A stretch of 64,000 bases of DNA, taken from a virus. Below, in pieces: positions 28,154-38,338 of this stretch. The stretch covers positions 68,947 through 132,946 of the IMG/VR virus record IMGVR_UViG_3300030451_003374; one strand, written 5' to 3'. A model generated the notes under the pieces. That model saw only the letters and a program-made list of their open reading frames with translations. It made no database searches and was not told where the DNA came from. A program made the translations under genes and the position numbers. Numbering within the stretch: position 1 is the stretch's first letter; the number at the start of each line of letters is the position of its first letter.

Positions 28154-28537
28154 TTAGTTTTCCCTTATGATAGCAGACGTCGTATTAGTGGTCAAGTTTC
28201 TTATGAAGATTTGTCCAAGAGGTGAGACCACGAAACTTATAATGGTCAACGCTCCTGCTATAGTCCACATCTTCTGCTCTATAGTACGAAGACGCTTATC
28301 TACTAGCATTATATCTCTCTCACATCCTTTCTTTATTTCTTTTGCATGACGATCTAACTTCTCATCAACCTGTTCTATCTTCTCAAACAGTACTGCATCT
28401 ATCCTATCCTGTTTATCTAACTTCTCATTGTGAACAGCAAGCAACTGTCCCATCTTGACTGAGTTCTCTTGCAGGGACTCTACAATTCTCTCTAGTCTTT
28501 CTAATATAGCATTATTAGCAGCATTACTTGGGTCCAC
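28154..28537 (-). CDS. Coiled-coil protein with C-terminal TM helix
   Basis: Heptad-rich N-terminus; WTIAGALTIISFVV. Confidence 0.7.
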   Translation of the reverse strand: MDPSNAANNAILERLERIVESLQENSVKMGQLLAVHNEKLDKQDRIDAVLFEKIEQVDEKLDRHAKEIKKGCERDIMLVDKRLRTIEQKMWTIAGALTIISFVVSPLGQIFIRNLTTNTTSAIIREN

Positions 28538-28724
28538 TGTTCATCCATCTACGACGTGATCCATGACCAGCAGTTGCATACTTTTTCTTCTTCTTTGGTT
28601 TCATCCCTTTGTCATACCCTGACACAGGACCTTCGTCATCTGCTTGCGAGGAGAAACCTGCCTTCCCAGTGCTACCAGGATCGGTGGACATCATCTCTTC
28701 TCTTATACTTTTCCAATCCTTCAT
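28524..28724 (-). CDS. Small basic protein, candidate internal head protein
   Basis: MKDWKSIREE N-terminus; KPKKKKKY. Confidence 0.6.
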   Translation of the reverse strand: MKDWKSIREEMMSTDPGSTGKAGFSSQADDEGPVSGYDKGMKPKKKKKYATAGHGSRRRWMNSGPK

Positions 28725-29112: not shown

Positions 29113-29682
29113 TTAGGCTTCTACTGTTAAAGTTCCAGCAGCAGTACCGATAGCAGCAGAATTAGTGATAGTAGACGCTGTGTTAGTGCCTGTATCCTTG
29201 ATAGTTCCACCGTTTAGTCCAACAGCATTTGCTCCAATTGATAGTACGTCGCCAGCGTTAGTGTCGTTAGCAGCAGCACCAATGGTCTTACTAAAGACTA
29301 ATTCATTAGTTGTTGTACCACTAGCATATGAAGCGGTAACGTTTCTTGCTACTGTATCGTTAGTGATAGTCAACTGAGGAGTTCCAGTTACGTCAACTGC
29401 CTCATTGAATCTGACTCTAACTTGTAGTACACCACCAGCAGACTTGTCAAACGCTGTAGATATAAATTCAATCTCAGTAATGTCAGCAGCACCTAGTGAT
29501 ACCGCTAGTCCACTAATAGCGACTAAGAGTTCAGGATCAGCGTCAGTGTTGTTATTACCACTAAGTGCTGAACCAGCTTCTCTTACCCAACCACTAGCGT
29601 TAGCAAAGACTTCTTTCTTCTCAGCAGTTGTCAAGTTCTTTGGCTTAGATTCATCAGAATCTGATGCTCCCCAGAGTGCCAT
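29113..29682 (-). CDS. Putative virion structural protein (beta-rich)
   Basis: MALWG N-terminus, Ig-like VRFNEAVDVTGTPQL, late promoter upstream. Confidence 0.65.
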   Translation of the reverse strand: MALWGASDSDESKPKNLTTAEKKEVFANASGWVREAGSALSGNNNTDADPELLVAISGLAVSLGAADITEIEFISTAFDKSAGGVLQVRVRFNEAVDVTGTPQLTITNDTVARNVTASYASGTTTNELVFSKTIGAAANDTNAGDVLSIGANAVGLNGGTIKDTGTNTASTITNSAAIGTAAGTLTVEA

Positions 29683-29711: not shown

Positions 29712-29719
29712 TATTTATC
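29712..29719 (-). promoter_or_regulatory. T4-type late promoter (GATAAATA)
   Basis: 7/8 match 30 nt before ATG 29682. Confidence 0.55.
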
Positions 29720-29949: not shown

Positions 29950-30261
29950 TTACACTCCTTTCAATAATCTATCTAACAGTCCCTTACCACGTCTCTTACC
30001 CTCTGTAGGGTCATACTTAGTGTTCATCATATCCTTGTTTGCTTGACTCTGAGCATCCTTCTTACCACCGTCATTGATACCAGTGACATTACCTTCCTTT
30101 ACACCCTTAGGCACACCCATTCTCTGCATAGAACTGAACATTCTAATTGCTTTTCTTCTTTGATATGCATCAGTAAGATCAAGACCTTTATCCTTTGCAA
30201 GATCTTTGTAATCATTATAAGGTGCTGGCATTTCAGTTACAAATTGTTTATAACTCTTCAT
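29950..30261 (-). CDS. Candidate internal head protein with capsid-targeting-like N-terminus
   Basis: MKSYKQFVTE compared with the T4 CTS MKTYQEFIAE. Confidence 0.65.
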   Translation of the reverse strand: MKSYKQFVTEMPAPYNDYKDLAKDKGLDLTDAYQRRKAIRMFSSMQRMGVPKGVKEGNVTGINDGGKKDAQSQANKDMMNTKYDPTEGKRRGKGLLDRLLKGV

Positions 30262-32345
30262 GTTCCTAATCCTTTACCAGATTTCATGTTCTCCTTACTA
30301 CCATACCTTGCTCTAGCATTTACATAAGACTTTGTATCACTACCATAACCCATCTCTTTAGTATCTTTCTTGAGTTGTTGCTTCTCTTTATGTCTAGCAA
30401 GATACTTACCAACACCAGTAGACTTCTGACCCTTCACCTTCTTAGGTTGGTTGCTACCACTCCTCATTATCTGACCCTTATACTTTTTCTTTACAGCATC
30501 AAGAGCAGCGTCCTTTACTTTAGGACCTGTAGGTTTCTTGGTACCACCTTTATCATAACCCTTCTCTTTCTTTAGACGAGTTGCTTCAGTCTGCATCTCT
30601 TCCTTCTTGAAGTTCTTGATTGCATTGTCAATGTTACTTGCTATAGATGGTTTTTCTGTCTTAGTTTTAGTGAAAGTATTCTTAATACCTTTTACAAGAC
30701 CATCTTTTTTGATGTTCTTGATGGCATTTACTCCTGTCTTTACATTACTGATTGTATTTCTTACAGATGTACCACCAATATTAAGATCTGTTCCAGCAGT
30801 TCCAAACTTTAGTGCTACAGATGTCTCTTTGACTACTTCTTCCTTCTTCAATAGACCATCTTTGATATCTTTTGTATGAGATTTTCTAAAGTCCTTCTTA
30901 CTTTCATCCTTTCCTTTAAGACTATAAACAGAAGACTTACTCAACTTACCAGACTTCTTACCACCCTTTGCTTGGTAGGATACATTTGGTGAGTATTCTT
31001 TAAGTTCATAATGATCTCTTAGATCATCAGGCACATTGTCCTCACTACCTGATATCTTAGCAGCATACTCTCTTCTCTTGAGCATTCTTCTACCTCTAGC
31101 ACCAGCGTCTTGTGCTTTCTGTGGTTTCTTTTCTGTCTCCTTAGCCTTAGGTTTAGATGTCCTTCTAAAACTAAACTTTATCTCAGTTAGAGTCTCTTCA
31201 CTCCAATCCTTTCTAACATACTCCTTACCACCAGGTCCAATGTCAGTTACCTTAGTCTTGATAGGTCTATTGACCTTGATCTTGACCATCTTTTTCTTCT
31301 CTACAATAGTCTCTTCCTTTTTTATTTTCGCTAGATCTTTATGTAGTTCTCTATACTGTGCTTTACTATCACCAGATCTTTTATTTGACTTATCCATCCT
31401 CTTATTTTTACCCACAGTCTTATATCCACCAGTGGTATATCTTTTTTGATAGAATCCTTCAGTCATCTCACCTTCTGGTTCGTGTGATTGATTCAATTGC
31501 TGAAGAAGTTTATTCTTCTGATCGTTTGCAGATTTTATCTTATTAAGATTAGTACCAGGTGTGTTGATAGATTTCTTCATCTGGTTTCTTGCCTTCATAC
31601 CCTGAGAAAACTTCCATGCAGCAAGACCAGCAGCAGTCAATGCTGCACCTGTAGTGAATACACCTTCTTGTTGTGTTGATTCCCAATGTGATGTGTCTCC
31701 ACCTGAGTTCCTTATCTTCTGTAGGTGCTGATCCTTAGTAATATTAGGCTTCATAATAGGTCTATTCCAGACCTCTTTTGCTTTGTTGACTATCTTCTTA
31801 CCTATCTTCTTCAAGTCTAATTCATATATGTACTCGTCAGAAAACTTTACACGTCTGGACACAGGTGTAGTAGTACCTGATGGATTAGTAACTCCCTTTG
31901 TTACTCTTGCATTACCCTTCTTCTTTGAACCACTCTTGAAATCTCTATGAGTTTTGTTGAACTCTTTAGTAGACATGGTATGATACGCATCCTTATCTTC
32001 CTTTACACTCTTCTTTCTTCTATTGATTTCCTTCTCTATTCTTTTCTTCATGAAAGAGTTGGCAGGACTCTGATCCATACCACTAAACTTCTTATGAGCA
32101 GCAGCGAGTTTCTCATCACTCTGCCTCCTCATCTTAGCGTCTTCACTTACAGATTCCTTTTTCATTTTCTTTTCAGGTAGTCCTTTATGTTTAGTTGATG
32201 CAAACTTCTTTGCATCTTTCATCTTTATGCTGGCAGCAGTTCTGGCAACCTCAGGTGAGGTAGCTTTCGCTTCACCTTTCTGAGCCGCTCTAACCATCCC
32301 GAAGAATCTTTGTTGTTTTCGGGAGACTGCTTTTTCATTTAGCAT
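30258..32345 (-). CDS. 695-aa Lys-rich modular protein, candidate internal head polyprotein
   Basis: Basic modules separated by acidic [LIVM]-x-E junctions. Confidence 0.7.
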   Translation of the reverse strand: MLNEKAVSRKQQRFFGMVRAAQKGEAKATSPEVARTAASIKMKDAKKFASTKHKGLPEKKMKKESVSEDAKMRRQSDEKLAAAHKKFSGMDQSPANSFMKKRIEKEINRRKKSVKEDKDAYHTMSTKEFNKTHRDFKSGSKKKGNARVTKGVTNPSGTTTPVSRRVKFSDEYIYELDLKKIGKKIVNKAKEVWNRPIMKPNITKDQHLQKIRNSGGDTSHWESTQQEGVFTTGAALTAAGLAAWKFSQGMKARNQMKKSINTPGTNLNKIKSANDQKNKLLQQLNQSHEPEGEMTEGFYQKRYTTGGYKTVGKNKRMDKSNKRSGDSKAQYRELHKDLAKIKKEETIVEKKKMVKIKVNRPIKTKVTDIGPGGKEYVRKDWSEETLTEIKFSFRRTSKPKAKETEKKPQKAQDAGARGRRMLKRREYAAKISGSEDNVPDDLRDHYELKEYSPNVSYQAKGGKKSGKLSKSSVYSLKGKDESKKDFRKSHTKDIKDGLLKKEEVVKETSVALKFGTAGTDLNIGGTSVRNTISNVKTGVNAIKNIKKDGLVKGIKNTFTKTKTEKPSIASNIDNAIKNFKKEEMQTEATRLKKEKGYDKGGTKKPTGPKVKDAALDAVKKKYKGQIMRSGSNQPKKVKGQKSTGVGKYLARHKEKQQLKKDTKEMGYGSDTKSYVNARARYGSKENMKSGKGLGT

Positions 32346-33093
32346 TGAACAGCTTGAGTGCGTCAGTCTCTACTTTATCCATTAGAGATTCCTTTTCACA
32401 TTTAGGAACAACCTTTCCCTTCTTCATTTGTGTCCCTGCTCTCTTATAACCTGTCCAACACTGGGTAGTCCCCACATTCTTACTTGCTTGAGACATCTTC
32501 TCTAGTAATCTATCTCTTGCCTCAGTTTTCATCTCAGGATTGATCTCGATCTTGTTCTTTACACCAGTTGTTTTGATGTCTAACTTCTCACCTTTAGTTG
32601 CTTCTTCAACTGAACTAGGTGTTCCATCTGCTTCATCTTCATGCTCAATGACATTACCATCTTCATCCTTTTGATGATGCTCAACTATTTCTAACCCTAG
32701 GTCTGCTCTCCAGTCTTCCTTCTTCAACTTCGCTCTCTTTGCCTTAGTCTTAGCAATGACTCTATCTCTTGCTTCAGATGCTGCCTTGTTAGGACCATCA
32801 TATGCCATAGCACCTTTAGCAGTTCTTGGTGGCTTCTTCTTTTCTTCCTGCTTCTGACCAATCCTTACTTTACCATCTCCTTTGTATATACCATATGCTG
32901 TACCTTCTGAACGAGTGTCCTGACCATCTGGTGTACCACCTTTCTTCTTCTGTATAGCATTATGAACTACACCAGCATGTTCTTTAGAACCACTTTCAAC
33001 CTTACCATCACCATCATAATCTTTCTTTGCTTTCTTCTCATGCAAATAAGGTGATCTTAGATCATCGTATACTTGTGTAAAGGGATTACTCAT
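32335..33093 (-). CDS. Charged protein with DxDxDG loop, candidate internal head protein
   Basis: DYDGDGKVE, CWTGY...VPKC; start moved to ATG 33093, downstream of the late promoter. Confidence 0.65.
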   Translation of the reverse strand: MSNPFTQVYDDLRSPYLHEKKAKKDYDGDGKVESGSKEHAGVVHNAIQKKKGGTPDGQDTRSEGTAYGIYKGDGKVRIGQKQEEKKKPPRTAKGAMAYDGPNKAASEARDRVIAKTKAKRAKLKKEDWRADLGLEIVEHHQKDEDGNVIEHEDEADGTPSSVEEATKGEKLDIKTTGVKNKIEINPEMKTEARDRLLEKMSQASKNVGTTQCWTGYKRAGTQMKKGKVVPKCEKESLMDKVETDALKLFNAK

Positions 33094-33116
33094 TTCTTTC
33101 CTAAGTCTTATCGTAT

Positions 33117-33124
33117 TATTTATC
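33117..33124 (-). promoter_or_regulatory. T4-type late promoter (GATAAATA)
   Basis: 24 nt upstream of ATG 33093. Confidence 0.55.
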
Positions 33125-34022
33125 AAAAATCAAGTGGCAGGAATAGTTTGTCTACTTCTTTTGCCTCTGATATCCATGCTCTAAAGATTTCTTTATTCTC
33201 ATCAACACAAATTAGATGGTTAGCACCACGTCTAAAGATCTGTCCTACTCTACTGTGTGACTCAATCATAGCACCGTTTTTGAATATATCTCCTGCCAAA
33301 TATTGCTCTCTTATAGTACGTTCATCTACAGGTATGACGTTCATCATAATATAATTGTAGAGTTGACCGTTTGCTTTCAATGCTAGCTCTGAGATTTCTT
33401 TTGCTCTGGACTGTCGTACAACGATATTAATTGCGTCAAATCCATTTTCATAGAGGGATTGTAAGACGTCGTAGATTGTTTCTGCGTTTGCATCGTCAAC
33501 GATGGACTCGCTAATCTTAGGATATGCATTCTTTAGTTCCTCAATTTCAGTGTCTCTACTTGGAAATATGTAGAAGTATTCTCCACCTGATACTTCCTCT
33601 ACTGTAGCAAGTATGTTATCGGTGACATCATCTTTGTCAAATTTATCAAACGCAATCGTAAGTGGGTTCTCTCTACTGACATTCTGTAGTGCTGCCTTTG
33701 CCTGTCCATTGGCAGAGTTTGGATTAGGTTGTGCTGTTTGTACTGACCTTGCTGCAACTTTACTTGCAAGTGAAGGTCCGTCATCACCAGAACCACGTTT
33801 AGCAACTGTTGCTGCTGCACTTGATCCAGCAGTACCCATCTCATCATCACCACTGCCTTGACCACTGAACATCTTAAGTTCACCCTTGACAGTCTTTGCC
33901 TTCAGGTTTCCTTGTCTGTCATACCAGTCTCCATGACCGTCACCAACGAGACCTAAACGCTTCGCTTCTTGCGATGCTTTAGTGGTTCTTGCTTCAGTTA
34001 TGAATTGTGTGAACTGTTTCAC
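33123..34022 (-). CDS. Cytidylyltransferase-like protein lacking the HxGH motif, CTS-like N-terminus
   Basis: MKQFTQFITEA...GDGHGDWYD N-terminus; TIAFDKFDKDDVTDNIL occupies the place of FGRFNPPTxGH. Confidence 0.55.
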   Translation of the reverse strand: MKQFTQFITEARTTKASQEAKRLGLVGDGHGDWYDRQGNLKAKTVKGELKMFSGQGSGDDEMGTAGSSAAATVAKRGSGDDGPSLASKVAARSVQTAQPNPNSANGQAKAALQNVSRENPLTIAFDKFDKDDVTDNILATVEEVSGGEYFYIFPSRDTEIEELKNAYPKISESIVDDANAETIYDVLQSLYENGFDAINIVVRQSRAKEISELALKANGQLYNYIMMNVIPVDERTIREQYLAGDIFKNGAMIESHSRVGQIFRRGANHLICVDENKEIFRAWISEAKEVDKLFLPLDF

Positions 34023-34240
34023 TTCAATTTTTCGTAGATTGATTTCTTGTTGGATTCAATATAATGGAGTCCAACATATTGCATTTGCTTATATTTATCT
34101 ATGGCTCCAGTTATAGCATAGAAAAAGCGTTGGAAGTCTTCAACTTCTTTAACCATGATCTGTTTTCGACGAGTCTTCTGTATCTTGTAGACCTCGATCA
34201 CCTCATCAATCAATTGATTCAATTCGGACGACTGCTTCAT
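34019..34240 (-). CDS. Hypothetical protein
   Basis: 73-aa ORF overlapping both neighbours in operon fashion. Confidence 0.6.
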   Translation of the reverse strand: MKQSSELNQLIDEVIEVYKIQKTRRKQIMVKEVEDFQRFFYAITGAIDKYKQMQYVGLHYIESNKKSIYEKLK

Positions 34241-35027
34241 TTAATTTAATACCCTCCTTAGTTAGTCCTCGACCTTTGGGTCGAATATCCACATAGGTCT
34301 TTGATGTGACCTCTCTTACAAGTGTAGCATCTATTCTACGTAGATACTTATCAGTCAATATAAAGTTAGCAGTCTTGTCATTATTGACGCCAAAAGCAAT
34401 TCTACCTGTCAATGCTTCCCTGACTAACTCCTCCTTGAATGATTGAAATACTTTTGATCCTTCTGGCATTTTTCTTGACCCTAGTATATCTTGCAGTGTC
34501 TCATTTATACCACCCTCCTTCTTTGCTTCTCTCATAAGTCTATCCATTATAGGTTTCTCTTGTCTTTTAGGTCCGTCAAATACTTCTGATAGTTCTGTTA
34601 GCACTGAGGCAACTTTCTTTACTTGCAACCCACCAAGACCCCCACTAAAAGATACTTTTGTTAGTACGTCATTCAATACCTTTACAGAACTCTCTATACC
34701 AGCAGAAGATAATTGGAATCTACCTCCATATTTTAGAGAGCATCTATGTTTGACACCATTCTTTCTGAATATGATATCTGTTTTTGGTTCAGGTCTTTGT
34801 CCACCCATCAATATAAAAGAGTCATAGAATACGTCATTACCTCTAATAGTATTTCTACTGCCACCTATACTATCCACCATTCTATCTGCTGCATTTTGTA
34901 TAGCAGCTTCTATAGGTTTACCATTGAAGAATGCCAGCATGGCTTGCTTAGTAAGACTAGGATTTTTTATCCTACTATAAGCAGATTTCATTACTGCAAA
35001 TTCAAATTGTTTACCTCTGTCTATCAT
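34206..35027 (-). CDS. Putative restriction-endonuclease-fold nuclease
   Basis: GKQFE helix, PKTDI...SLK. Confidence 0.45.
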   Translation of the reverse strand: MIDRGKQFEFAVMKSAYSRIKNPSLTKQAMLAFFNGKPIEAAIQNAADRMVDSIGGSRNTIRGNDVFYDSFILMGGQRPEPKTDIIFRKNGVKHRCSLKYGGRFQLSSAGIESSVKVLNDVLTKVSFSGGLGGLQVKKVASVLTELSEVFDGPKRQEKPIMDRLMREAKKEGGINETLQDILGSRKMPEGSKVFQSFKEELVREALTGRIAFGVNNDKTANFILTDKYLRRIDATLVREVTSKTYVDIRPKGRGLTKEGIKLNEAVVRIESID

Positions 35028-36229
35028 TAGTACATGTTTTTTCTTTCATCTCTAGAGAACCCCTTTACTTCTGGAGTATTTGCTCCAAAGGTTTTCTTTA
35101 TCACTCTTATATATTCGTCATTCAATTCAAGTCCAGTGACCTGATCTTCAAAATTGAATCCTCCTTGTACCCTACGCCTATTAGATGATGGGGTCTTTAG
35201 TTTATGATCTCTATAAAACTTATCACCATTCTGCTCGTATATAAACTGTTTCAATGGCATCTTATACTCAGGTATTTCTTGCCAACTGTTTATATAGTCC
35301 TGATTTGTGACCGCCCACCTCTGAAAGTTAGGTGTATCAAAGAAGTGAAACGCATTATTGAGTGGTGGATAAGGTGCTATATTATATTGTTCATGACATC
35401 TGACCTGACAGTACTGATACTTGATCATGAAACACCATGCCCAAGTCCATTGCTTTAGACTAACATCTTTCTTGTTCAGAACACACATCAATGACTGATG
35501 GCATATTTCTGCCACCCAATCAGGAATTACCTTATTGAAATGACCATTTCTAACTTCTTGTGGGTATAAAAATACTCTTGCTGAACCCATTATATTGTCT
35601 CCTATCTCACCTGTGACAAATAAATTGTTAGTATCTTTTACGTATGGAATCAGAGGAGTTCTAAGAGCAAATCTTTCGTTGACGTATCCATGATTGATAG
35701 CAGTTATGTTACTATACTTACCTGTCTCTAGATCATTCCACCCTGTTGTACACTCTTTCTTTGCTGAGACATCGTAGTGTACATTGATTGGTATATTTGT
35801 TCTAGCAAAAGCATATAGAGCAGTGGTGCTATCAATACCACCTGACCATAATAAGTTTATCTTTCTTCCATTAGAATTATCATTGATAACGTTGACAGCA
35901 TCCTCACACACATTATCAAATGACATATCAGTGTGAAGGTTGGTAGGTAGTGGTGATATTATTTTGTATGGGTGTTTGGGTACAATTTTACCTCTCCTAC
36001 ATACACATCTAGTCCTAAAATATCTGTTGAGTGCGTTCTCTTTGTTAGTAAAATTACCTTTATAATACCATCCCTTCCCCTCCTTGTTTTTCAGACCCCT
36101 AGGCATATATTCAGTGCTCCATTTATAATCATAAGGAGGTTCAAGACTACCATCTTCAGACCATGAATGATTGTTACGGTCTGGATGCATAGACTCTAAT
36201 ATATTTTCATCTAGTTCTTGATATCCCAC
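35027..36229 (-). CDS. PP-loop ATP pyrophosphatase, Asn-synthetase C-terminal-like, paralog A
   Basis: INLLWSGGIDSTT and FVTGEIGDNIMG. Confidence 0.7.
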   Translation of the reverse strand: MGYQELDENILESMHPDRNNHSWSEDGSLEPPYDYKWSTEYMPRGLKNKEGKGWYYKGNFTNKENALNRYFRTRCVCRRGKIVPKHPYKIISPLPTNLHTDMSFDNVCEDAVNVINDNSNGRKINLLWSGGIDSTTALYAFARTNIPINVHYDVSAKKECTTGWNDLETGKYSNITAINHGYVNERFALRTPLIPYVKDTNNLFVTGEIGDNIMGSARVFLYPQEVRNGHFNKVIPDWVAEICHQSLMCVLNKKDVSLKQWTWAWCFMIKYQYCQVRCHEQYNIAPYPPLNNAFHFFDTPNFQRWAVTNQDYINSWQEIPEYKMPLKQFIYEQNGDKFYRDHKLKTPSSNRRRVQGGFNFEDQVTGLELNDEYIRVIKKTFGANTPEVKGFSRDERKNMY

Positions 36230-37299
36230 TACATATTACCCCCAAAGACAGACTTCTGAAGTGCAAACCACTCCTCATTGTCATGCAAACCATCAAGATC
36301 ATTGTTATATAATCTCTTTCTATTAGATGATGGAAACTTTAGTTTGTTATCTCTATAATATTCATCACCATTCTGTTCATATATCCACTGTTTGAGTGGC
36401 ATCTTATACTCCTTTGGTTTCTGCCAAGAACTGTTCTCATCTTGATTAGTATGTCCATATCTATTCCAGTTAGGTGTATCAAAGAAGTGGAAGCAATTAT
36501 TATATGGAGCAAACGGTGCTACAGCACCATAGTATCTGATGCTACGGACTGCTGCTGTTTGATATTTGAACATATAACTTCCTGCCCACATCCATTGCTT
36601 TAGACTAGCACCTTCTTTGTTCAAGGCATAGTGCATAGTGTCATAAGTCAGTTCATCTATCCTCTCAGGTATACTCTCCCTGTAATCTCTGTCCCATTTG
36701 TCTGGTGGAAAAGCAAATATCTTACCTGTACCAAATATTTGATCACCAATCTCACCTGTTACAAATATATTGTCCTCGTTTATGTAAGGTTCTACTCCCT
36801 TCCTTACACTCATCCCTGCTTCATAGGGTGCACAGTCTTGAGTATTGTCATGGTGGTGCATGATAACATTCATATTGACATACTCACCTAGTTTACTGAA
36901 TATGAATGGTGCTTCCTTCTCTACCTGAGGGTCACAGTGTACATTTATGGTAAGACCTGTGTTGTGTAAGGCATAGAATACAGTAGTACTATCAATACCA
37001 CCAGACCACAAGAGATTTATCGTTCTACCGTCAGCATATTGGACACATAGATCTGCTGCATCTCTACAGCAATCATCTATAGTCATATCAGTGTGAAAAT
37101 TATTGTCTACGAAATCTGGTAGTGGTGATATAACTGTGTAATTTCTTTTTGTTGGTAATAATCCTGCTCTACATATACATCTCATGCCCATCCATCTGTT
37201 CAATTCATTCTCTTCTTTCAGAAAGAACATTTGATACCTAGGAGTATCAAAATACTTTGCACTAGAGAGATATTGAGATGGCCACTCAAGAAATTGCAT
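36229..37299 (-). CDS. PP-loop ATP pyrophosphatase, Asn-synthetase C-terminal-like, paralog B
   Basis: INLLWSGGIDSTT and FVTGEIGDQIFG; start moved to ATG 37299 because the TTG start lies in the terminator U-tract. Confidence 0.7.
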   Translation of the reverse strand: MQFLEWPSQYLSSAKYFDTPRYQMFFLKEENELNRWMGMRCICRAGLLPTKRNYTVISPLPDFVDNNFHTDMTIDDCCRDAADLCVQYADGRTINLLWSGGIDSTTVFYALHNTGLTINVHCDPQVEKEAPFIFSKLGEYVNMNVIMHHHDNTQDCAPYEAGMSVRKGVEPYINEDNIFVTGEIGDQIFGTGKIFAFPPDKWDRDYRESIPERIDELTYDTMHYALNKEGASLKQWMWAGSYMFKYQTAAVRSIRYYGAVAPFAPYNNCFHFFDTPNWNRYGHTNQDENSSWQKPKEYKMPLKQWIYEQNGDEYYRDNKLKFPSSNRKRLYNNDLDGLHDNEEWFALQKSVFGGNM

Positions 37300-37330
37300 T
37301 ATAAAAGGATCCCATGTAGTATATAGACAC

Positions 37331-37356
37331 AAAAAAAGGGAGTCCGAAGACTCCCC
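37331..37356 (-). terminator. Rho-independent terminator with cUUCGg tetraloop
   Basis: Minus strand GGGAGTC-TTCG-GACTCCC-TTTTTTT downstream of the dctP-like gene. Confidence 0.9.
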
Positions 37357-37378: not shown

Positions 37379-38338
37379 TTACTTTGTTTCTTTTATAGAA
37401 TCCACAAGTCCCTCTGGGAACATGTGTGCATACTTGTCATAGATGTATGCTGTCTTTTCTTTGAATCTAGACTTCTCTTCGTCGCTCATAGTGACAACGT
37501 TGATGTTCTCATCGGCACATGCAGACTTGACTAAGTCAATGTCTTCCACAGACCAAACTCTTTCTGCTCTAGCAGCATCGAATGATGCGTCTTGGATCTT
37601 ATCTTGAAGATCTTTGTCTAAAGAGTTCCAGAACCCTTCACTTACAATGATTGATGTAAGGAATAGACTGTGTGATGTGTCGTTGATTGTATTCATACAC
37701 TCATTCTGCTTCAATCCAAAGAAGCGAGGGTATGTTGACTCTCCACCAACGATAATTCCAGACTGAACTCCTTCGTTGATCTGCTCTAATTCGATTGGAA
37801 CTGTCTTAGCACCAACGCATTCTAGAGTTTCGATAGCGATAGGAGATTTGTTACAACGTAACTCAAGTCCTTCAAAGTCTTCGATCTTATGTATTTCTGC
37901 GTTTGCAGGGATGTTTCTGTATCCGCCTGAGTATGTGAACGCTAAACCTTTTACTCCGCCCTTTTCACCTTTAGCAGGATCTGCTAAACCATCAAGTAGT
38001 GACTTACCAATAGGACCTTCAAAGACATGACTTGCGTGATCATGATCACGGAACAAGAATGGCATATCTAATGCCCAGAAATCTTTGTTGTGCTTACGAC
38101 CTAATGTTGAGGTATACATCTGGGAGACCTCAATCTTCCCTTCTGCCATTAGTTCGAGTAAGTCGTGCTTAGTAATTGACTCACCGTTATTATACTTCTC
38201 AGCGTACTCAGAGAGTGTGAGAATTTCGATGTTTAAAGCACCTGGTGCGATTGCTTCCATAGATGCCTTGAACTTTCTCGCAGCTCTTAGAAACAATTCA
38301 ATTGGTTCGTGTGCTAGAACCCATCTAATTGTTTTCAT
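37379..38338 (-). CDS. TRAP-type substrate-binding protein (DctP-like) without signal peptide
   Basis: LDMPFLFRDHDHA, DFEGLELR with the conserved Arg, HSLFLTSIIVSEGFWNSLDKDLQDKI; no hydrophobic N-terminus; SD AAGGGG. Confidence 0.85.
   Translation of the reverse strand: MKTIRWVLAHEPIELFLRAARKFKASMEAIAPGALNIEILTLSEYAEKYNNGESITKHDLLELMAEGKIEVSQMYTSTLGRKHNKDFWALDMPFLFRDHDHASHVFEGPIGKSLLDGLADPAKGEKGGVKGLAFTYSGGYRNIPANAEIHKIEDFEGLELRCNKSPIAIETLECVGAKTVPIELEQINEGVQSGIIVGGESTYPRFFGLKQNECMNTINDTSHSLFLTSIIVSEGFWNSLDKDLQDKIQDASFDAARAERVWSVEDIDLVKSACADENINVVTMSDEEKSRFKEKTAYIYDKYAHMFPEGLVDSIKETK

Follow-up and report, generated by a model that had tools for sequence, protein, structure and literature searches.

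A candidate capsid-internal cargo polyprotein in a T4-like cyanomyophage

Is a long, strongly basic phage protein made of many small blocks one polypeptide throughout its life, or a string of peptides to be cut apart inside the capsid? The question is raised by P0001, the label used here for a 695-amino-acid open reading frame (ORF) in a stretch of 64,000 nucleotides from the IMG/VR virus record IMGVR_UViG_3300030451_003374 (positions 68,947 to 132,946; hereafter the window). An earlier note on this DNA had proposed that the ORF yields a series of basic peptides released by the prohead protease, which would neutralise DNA charge and be ejected into the host. We found that the architecture of P0001 is modular, shuffled and non-random, and that its Glu-ending junctions are genuine module edges. 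With moderate confidence we read P0001 as a cargo polyprotein that a T4-like cyanomyophage would carry inside its capsid and that a gp21-type protease would cut into cassette peptides.

The P0001 gene and its modular architecture

The ORF lies where the earlier note had placed it and is on the minus strand, a point that the note had left unstated; a plus-strand reading of the same interval was rejected because there is no ORF on that strand.

30258 to 32345, minus strand: 695-amino-acid basic modular ORF P0001, stop codon included (ORF call, composition)

Lysine makes up 19% and arginine 5% of the residues (134 Lys and 37 Arg, 171 in all, beside 46 Glu and 34 Asp), the net charge is +91 and there are no cysteines. 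The source of the window is a T4-like cyanomyophage (Kyanoviridae), represented by a contig that is a 133-kb fragment, about 70% complete, with the head module missing. The P0001 gene adjoins the replication genes gp61 and nrdAB, and its start overlaps the stop of an upstream 263-amino-acid ORF, w263, with which it is probably co-transcribed. Pfam and NCBIfam searches gave no match for P0001 or its small neighbours.

All eleven Glu-ending strings that had been listed as junctions are present in the protein, ending at residues 4, 68, 116, 175, 227, 296, 349, 388, 450, 507 and 587, and the blocks between them measure 39-108 residues, in agreement with the range of roughly 40-110 given before. 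A search over 5.8 billion proteins recovered 852 relatives of similar length, many with 85-96% identity to P0001 over the shared parts; among the close relatives, whole cassettes of 26-180 residues are present in some and missing from others. Among 55 close relatives there were 28 unique cassette indels, and in 8-13 of these both edges fell right after a Glu, compared with 0.7-1.2 expected under a positional null (P<1/3000), when the same shift of 2-4 residues or less at both edges was counted. A stricter exact-slide test gave five events where 0.3 were expected; it was judged too strict, because the junctions are similar and not identical, and was replaced by the same-shift tolerance. Most of the other indels had one edge exactly after a Glu and the second edge within a junction.

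The same boundaries emerged from alignments with differently arranged relatives, in which 49% of the starts and 59% of the ends of high-scoring segment pairs (HSPs) lay at most 4 residues from listed junctions, against an expectation of 13% (P≤0.002). An AlphaFold (AF2) model built with 51 sequences has the appearance of beads on a string, with confident modules at residues 9-50, 68-113, 120-170 and 645-690, dips in per-residue confidence (pLDDT) at residues 51-67, 114-119, 172-202 and 282-326, and low confidence over a large part of residues 338-612. The indel-edge, HSP-endpoint and pLDDT tests are all independent of the junction motif. The earlier note had considered random placement of Glu relative to the block boundaries as the pattern that would speak against it; the placement is not random, given that indel edges and HSP ends fall at the junctions. 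Its picture of a modular, shufflable array is likewise borne out by the cassette indels among relatives and by altered order between lineages: P0001 residues 65-122 (cassette 2) sit at 459-518 in the S-SSM7 protein SSSM7_236, and the cassette at residues 403-446 sits at 873-913 in the same protein. The description of the blocks as unrelated holds in that no internal repeats were seen, with the qualification that several blocks are recognisable as cassettes occurring elsewhere.

The cassettes delimited in the protein are listed below.

32142 to 32345, minus strand: cassette 1 (residues 1-68), DUF3008-like and helical (PHROG matches, PF11450 in relatives, AF2 model)
31998 to 32141, minus strand: cassette 2 (residues 69-116), a helical hairpin found at varied positions in many relatives (AF2 model, HSPs)
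31821 to 31997, minus strand: cassette 3 (residues 117-175), a small alpha/beta module (AF2 model, HSPs)
31458 to 31820, minus strand: cassettes 4-5 (residues 176-296), including an Ala/Gly-rich segment at 228-249 (relatives, AF2 model, hydropathy)
30261 to 30584, minus strand: last cassette (residues 588-695) (free-standing homologues, structure prediction)

Five PHROGs align to residues 2-63 of P0001. The Pfam family DUF3008 (PF11450; gathering threshold 24 bits) gave no match to P0001 even at E≤1, and it scores 15.1 bits with P0020, a relative with one substitution in the N-terminal cassette, and 26 bits with more distant relatives. Cassette 3 is common to P0001 and to a group of 312-amino-acid proteins with an MLSF leader. 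The last cassette is predicted as a confident small helical bundle. A Foldseek search with the best-folded cassette found no PDB match and, in BFVD, cyanophage homologues only; the ESM Atlas returned unnamed viral clusters only, a SAM-lyase cluster (0.85) having been rejected as below a usable score. DUF6321 (PF19846) is absent from P0001; relatives with about 92% identity over the shared parts have it at the Glu587 junction, where it separates the last two cassettes. Both DUF3008 and DUF6321 are uncharacterised families for which a literature search found no papers.

The segment at residues 228-249 had been described as amphipathic and possibly membrane-active. The segment exists and is conserved, but membrane activity is poorly supported, as it is weakly hydrophobic and modelled at low confidence, and a transmembrane reading was rejected on its Kyte-Doolittle mean of 1.06 over 19 residues.

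Two further observations concern the family. Most metagenome gene calls begin at Met17 (window 32298-32345, minus strand) and so truncate the DUF3008 cassette; the longer start is supported by homology to a conserved KQQRFFG motif. A zinc-ribbon-like cassette with four cysteines (CG.G.Y.C....KC.PIP.G), absent from P0001, is inserted or deleted between Glu junctions in P0020, P0022 and others, on the viral contig L035 and at the C-terminus of SSSM7_236.

Junctions, capsid-targeting leaders and the prohead protease

The T4 prohead protease gp21 cuts after L/I-x-E, and the T4 capsid-targeting sequence (CTS) is MKTYQEFIAE. Residues 4 and 7 of the CTS target the protein and residues 8 and 10 direct its processing, which is prevented by Asp at position 10 (PMC9026906). 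Comparison with free-standing homologues supports the view that the junctions of P0001 correspond to T4-type capsid-targeting and cleavage leaders. The last cassette also exists as a free-standing gene of 117-123 amino acids in dozens of clusters, including SSSM7_235 (T4-GC422) and P-SSM4 gp186, and every one of these copies starts with the nine residues MKNFQ[EQ]FQE, followed by residues matching those after Glu587 of P0001. In the short relative P0243 a leader ending in ..ELKE is followed by the residues that come after Glu450 in P0001. Furthermore, in proteins of 150-185 amino acids with their own MKSY or MKSF leader the DUF3008 cassette comes directly after ..VLNE-K, an internal junction to which the N-terminal MLNE of P0001 is homologous, and the start of P0001 is therefore a former junction.

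The cyanophage leaders keep K2, an aromatic residue at position 4, F/I at 7, I/V/L at 8 and E at 10. This pattern fits only three of the 2,890 candidate ORF starts on the 133-kb contig, and all three belong to real genes on the same strand as P0001 and at most 5.5 kb from it.

33123 to 34022, minus strand: w299, with a 10-residue CTS-like leader ending in ..FITE-A; homologue of T4-GC190 ('cytidylyltransferase') (leader scan, homology)
29950 to 30261, minus strand: w103, with the 10-residue CTS-like leader MKSYKQFVTE (leader scan)
28524 to 28724, minus strand: w66, with the CTS-like leader MKDWKSIREE (leader scan)

Literature searches on the CTS in cyanophage and on polyproteins in cyanophage returned nothing relevant.

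Among the junctions, the string EE-x-x-x-E is strongly enriched in P0001, with four occurrences compared with 0.19 expected (P about 5e-5), at residues 344, 383, 502 and 582 and usually in the form KKEE-x-Φ-x-E (Φ, hydrophobic); the clustering of Glu as such is modest (P=0.03).

31299 to 31322, minus strand: junction KKEE-x-x-x-E, ending at Glu349 (motif count, HSP endpoints)
31182 to 31202, minus strand: junction SEE-x-x-x-E, ending at Glu388 (motif count, HSP endpoints)
30825 to 30848, minus strand: junction KKEE-x-x-x-E, ending at Glu507 (motif count, indels in relatives)
30585 to 30608, minus strand: junction KKEE-x-x-x-E, ending at Glu587 (motif count, relatives)

At the Glu507 junction close relatives have the upstream cassette replaced and the downstream cassette deleted, and the Glu587 junction is the one homologous to the MKNFQEFQE leader of the free-standing last cassette.

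The protease itself is encoded by the near relatives G001 and G002, whose polyprotein is 87% identical, and by the more distant G004, and gp21 was reported in all 16 cyanophage genomes of Table S8 (Sullivan 2010, PMC3037559). Hydrophobic-x-E sites styled like the P0001 junctions are carried by gp23, gp21 and gp22 of the relatives: gp23 has ..FLSE-A at the maturation position, gp21 begins MKLISEEIE and gp22 holds EEE-x-Φ-x-E strings. These resemblances are consistent with a cyanophage gp21 that accepts the junction style of P0001.

Some of the 150-185-amino-acid ORFs mentioned above, on the viral contigs L024 and L035, have leaders that end in Asp at position 10 (MKSYDQFKTD). Their products might keep the leader when packaged, because in T4 a protein with Asp10 is still targeted to the capsid but goes unprocessed. 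A small, extremely acidic ORF lies between gp20 and gp21 in P-SSM3 and S-SSM7 (L005:3893-4231 and L006:3649-3951); its product may be a core component similar to gp67/68 and a partner to which basic cargo binds.

Probable virion association and competing explanations

Comparison with phage S-SM1 makes virion association of P0001 likely. Purified S-SM1 virions contain T4-GC119 (13 counts), GC190 (25), GC1453, GC1454, GC1455, GC425 and GC426 (PMC3037559, Table S8). The S-SM1 region syntenic with the window locus reads mazG ... GC1453, GC190, GC1454, GC1455, GC424, GC425, GC426 ... gp61-nrdA, and P0001 fills the slot of GC1454 and GC1455. In both S-SM1 and P-SSM3 a CTS-like leader is found at the start of GC190, and GC1455, which begins MLSFKELQE, belongs to the 312-amino-acid family, which shares two cassettes with P0001. 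Three cassettes of P0001 match SSSM7_236, annotated as T4-GC119 (E values 4e-23, 3e-10 and 9e-7), and a P0001 relative that is 92% identical in the shared parts has a DUF6321 cassette 90% identical to that of the S-SM1 GC119 protein. The latter has the same KKEE...E junction style and is also without a canonical leader, yet it is found in virions.

We infer the packaging of P0001, its cutting, and the retention and action of the peptides along the following lines. The gene would be transcribed late, together with neighbours whose products bear T4-like 10-residue targeting leaders. Its product would comprise about 10-12 cassettes, small and for the most part basic, joined by short acidic junctions ending in Glu; these include the DUF3008-like module, helical hairpins, the small alpha/beta module and disordered stretches rich in Lys, with a helical bundle at the C-terminus. 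The protein would enter the prohead core, a gp21-type prohead protease would cut after the junction Glu residues, and the basic peptides would remain with the DNA in the capsid and may accompany it into the host. Proteolytic release of the peptides is plausible from the junction and leader comparisons. More tentatively, and on balance doubtfully, the family may form a combinatorial library of injected effector or DNA-binding peptides, in which reshuffled polyproteins would be loaded into the prohead and released by gp21 at CTS-derived junctions.

The nearest known counterpart is the T4 system of internal proteins, CTS and gp21, which likewise involves basic proteins of a T4-like phage with Glu at the predicted cut, and whose 10-residue leader pattern recurs in the flanking genes and free-standing cassettes described here; in both cases a hyperplastic accessory locus lies outside the head module and family members are found in virions. 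Unlike the T4 internal proteins, which have one leader each, P0001 fuses many cassettes with internal junctions, has no N-terminal leader, often has V, M or Q at P3 and shows no sequence similarity to the mature T4 proteins, and its cleavage and ejection are putative. The T4-GC119 'structural protein' cluster (PMC3037559) is basic like P0001, has gene lengths of 276-2985 nucleotides and includes the virion-detected S-SM1 member; its S-SSM7 member has three cassettes in common with P0001, the DUF3008 N-terminus among them. P0001 differs in cassette content and order and is without DUF6321, through which most members are connected to the S-SM1 protein. This cluster had never been interpreted as a polyprotein, nor tied to the CTS and gp21. 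Multi-site cutting at x-x-Glu by a gp21-family protease is known from T4 gp22, gp67 and gp68 and from the inner-body and ejection proteins of phiKZ and SPN3US, some fragments of which stay in the head. Unlike P0001, none of these consists of basic cassettes that shuffle independently: in T4 the core proteins are acidic and are for the most part expelled, and the phiKZ and SPN3US proteins are large and folded, with propeptides.

Several observations weigh against the cargo polyprotein. Neither gp21 nor gp23 was found on the 133-kb contig, so that the phage's own protease was not seen; the searches of this contig with PF03420 and PF07068 were empty because the head module is missing. P0001 itself has no significant cassette match to the S-SM1 T4-GC119 virion protein, and its link to that protein is therefore transitive. 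T4-GC119 went undetected in virions of Syn9, and S-PM2 does not have it (PMC3037559, Table S8); published tryptic proteomics cannot separate full-length from cut protein. The start MLNE of P0001 does not fit the CTS-like leader pattern. The claim that the junctions are (L/I)-x-E sites stands as far as the Glu-ending strings go, but true (L/I)-x-E occurs at only five of the eleven, and neither [LI]xE (6 seen, 3.9 expected, P=0.19) nor [LIVM]xE (10 seen, 7.3 expected, P=0.18) is enriched in P0001; at about half of the eleven, P3 is V, M or Q, residues not known to be accepted there by T4 gp21. In a gap-ridden alignment of 51 sequences the conservation of junction Glu did not differ significantly from that of other Glu (P=0.15), and purine-rich microhomology (AAGAAGGAAGA) at the junctions could alone focus recombination there.

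The missing [LI]xE enrichment, the unexceptional conservation of the junction Glu, a microhomology that could explain where indel edges fall and the predicted disorder of most of the chain all favour a basic protein inside the virion that remains whole or loses only one or two pieces, with a disordered DNA-condensing or core role and with junctions that act as flexible linkers and recombination hot spots. We consider this unlikely, while giving it some weight, since homology links the junctions with the leaders that open free-standing cassettes, those leaders match the functional positions of the T4 CTS, including processing residues 8 and 10, and gp21, gp22 and gp23 of the relatives show this junction style too. 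It is improbable that P0001 is instead a core or scaffold-like assembly factor, not delivered cargo, which is loaded into the prohead and cut by gp21 and whose pieces leave the head before DNA packaging or in its course, like those of T4 gp22, gp67 and gp68. T4 core proteins are indeed cut into many fragments that mostly leave the head, a fate that the multi-site architecture resembles, but P0001 is strongly basic (+91) whereas cyanophage gp22 is acidic, which favours staying with the DNA; moreover, T4-GC119 peptides occur in mature S-SM1 virions, and the fast turnover of cassettes suits accessory cargo better than it does an assembly core.

The position of the gene beside gp61 and nrdAB and the absence of a leader on P0001 would suit a cytoplasmic, non-virion protein that binds nucleic acid or serves host takeover and resembles packaged proteins by coincidence. 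This we regard as quite improbable: the syntenic S-SM1 locus encodes six virion-detected proteins, T4-GC119 members adjoin gp16/gp17 in S-SM1 and baseplate genes in S-SSM7, late-promoter-like motifs lie upstream, and the T4 internal-protein genes too lie outside the head module. Very improbable, finally, is the production of the blocks as separate proteins from internal translation starts, without proteolysis. Met294 and Met584 do stand just before two junction Glu, behind purine-rich Shine-Dalgarno-like sequence, but a Met is nearby at only two of the eleven junctions, so internal starts cannot make the blocks; with nine junctions lacking one, internal initiation was rejected as a general mechanism, and cassette edges track Glu, not Met.

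Neighbouring genes and implications for cyanophages

Around P0001 and the three leader-bearing genes, the locus contains the following features.

32335 to 33126, minus strand: w263, a second basic multi-block protein, with ..SVEE-A and ..MKTE-A junctions (ORF context)
29113 to 29682, minus strand: w189, homologue of T4-GC425 ('S-layer domain'), which was seen in S-SM1 virions (homology)
34206 to 35027, minus strand: w273, homologue of T4-GC1453, which was seen in S-SM1 virions (homology)
33117 to 33124, minus strand: late-promoter-like GATAAATA, about 25 nucleotides upstream of the first ATG of w263 (motif scan)

Similar late-promoter-like motifs are found at 34092-34099, before w299, and at 29712-29719, before w189; the GATAAATA motif is not enriched across the window, and the promoter reading is suggestive only. 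The junction strings SVEE-A, MKTE-A and GVKE-G, to which the earlier note had pointed in neighbouring genes, are present there.

The alignment of w299 with the S-SM1 'cytidylyltransferase' is weak (28-35% identity; 299 and 387 amino acids). Past its leader, the 66-amino-acid w66 resembles the N-terminus of T4-GC426, as at L067:8806-9354 and L002:8854-9393. The T4-GC426 N-terminus mimics that of mature gp23 (..TGP.AG[YF]DPV), and the P-SSM3 copy is annotated 'major head protein'; w66 may be a decoy or an accessory capsid-lattice protein. Elsewhere in the window, at 37379-38338 (minus strand), there is a gene for a DctP-type (TRAP family 7) solute-binding protein (PF03480, E=1.6e-40). Two paralogues with a weak resemblance to QueC lie downstream of it, at 35027-37332.

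In the ocean, T4-like cyanophages rank with the most abundant viruses, yet we found no description of their internal or ejected head proteins in the searchable literature. If P0001 is a capsid-internal cargo polyprotein, the logic of T4 capsid targeting and gp21 processing would span the whole T4 superfamily, and a highly variable gene class, T4-GC119/422 and its neighbours, would represent the cargo that enters the host first. Proteins of this class would then be obvious candidates for anti-defence or takeover factors, and the cargo reading would also account for the under-detection of such Lys-rich proteins by tryptic proteomics. Should the more tentative reading as a combinatorial library also be true, the CTS/gp21 cargo system would be ancient and kept from coliphages to ocean cyanophages, with a gene-fusion 'cassette array' mode that adds new cargo by in-frame recombination.

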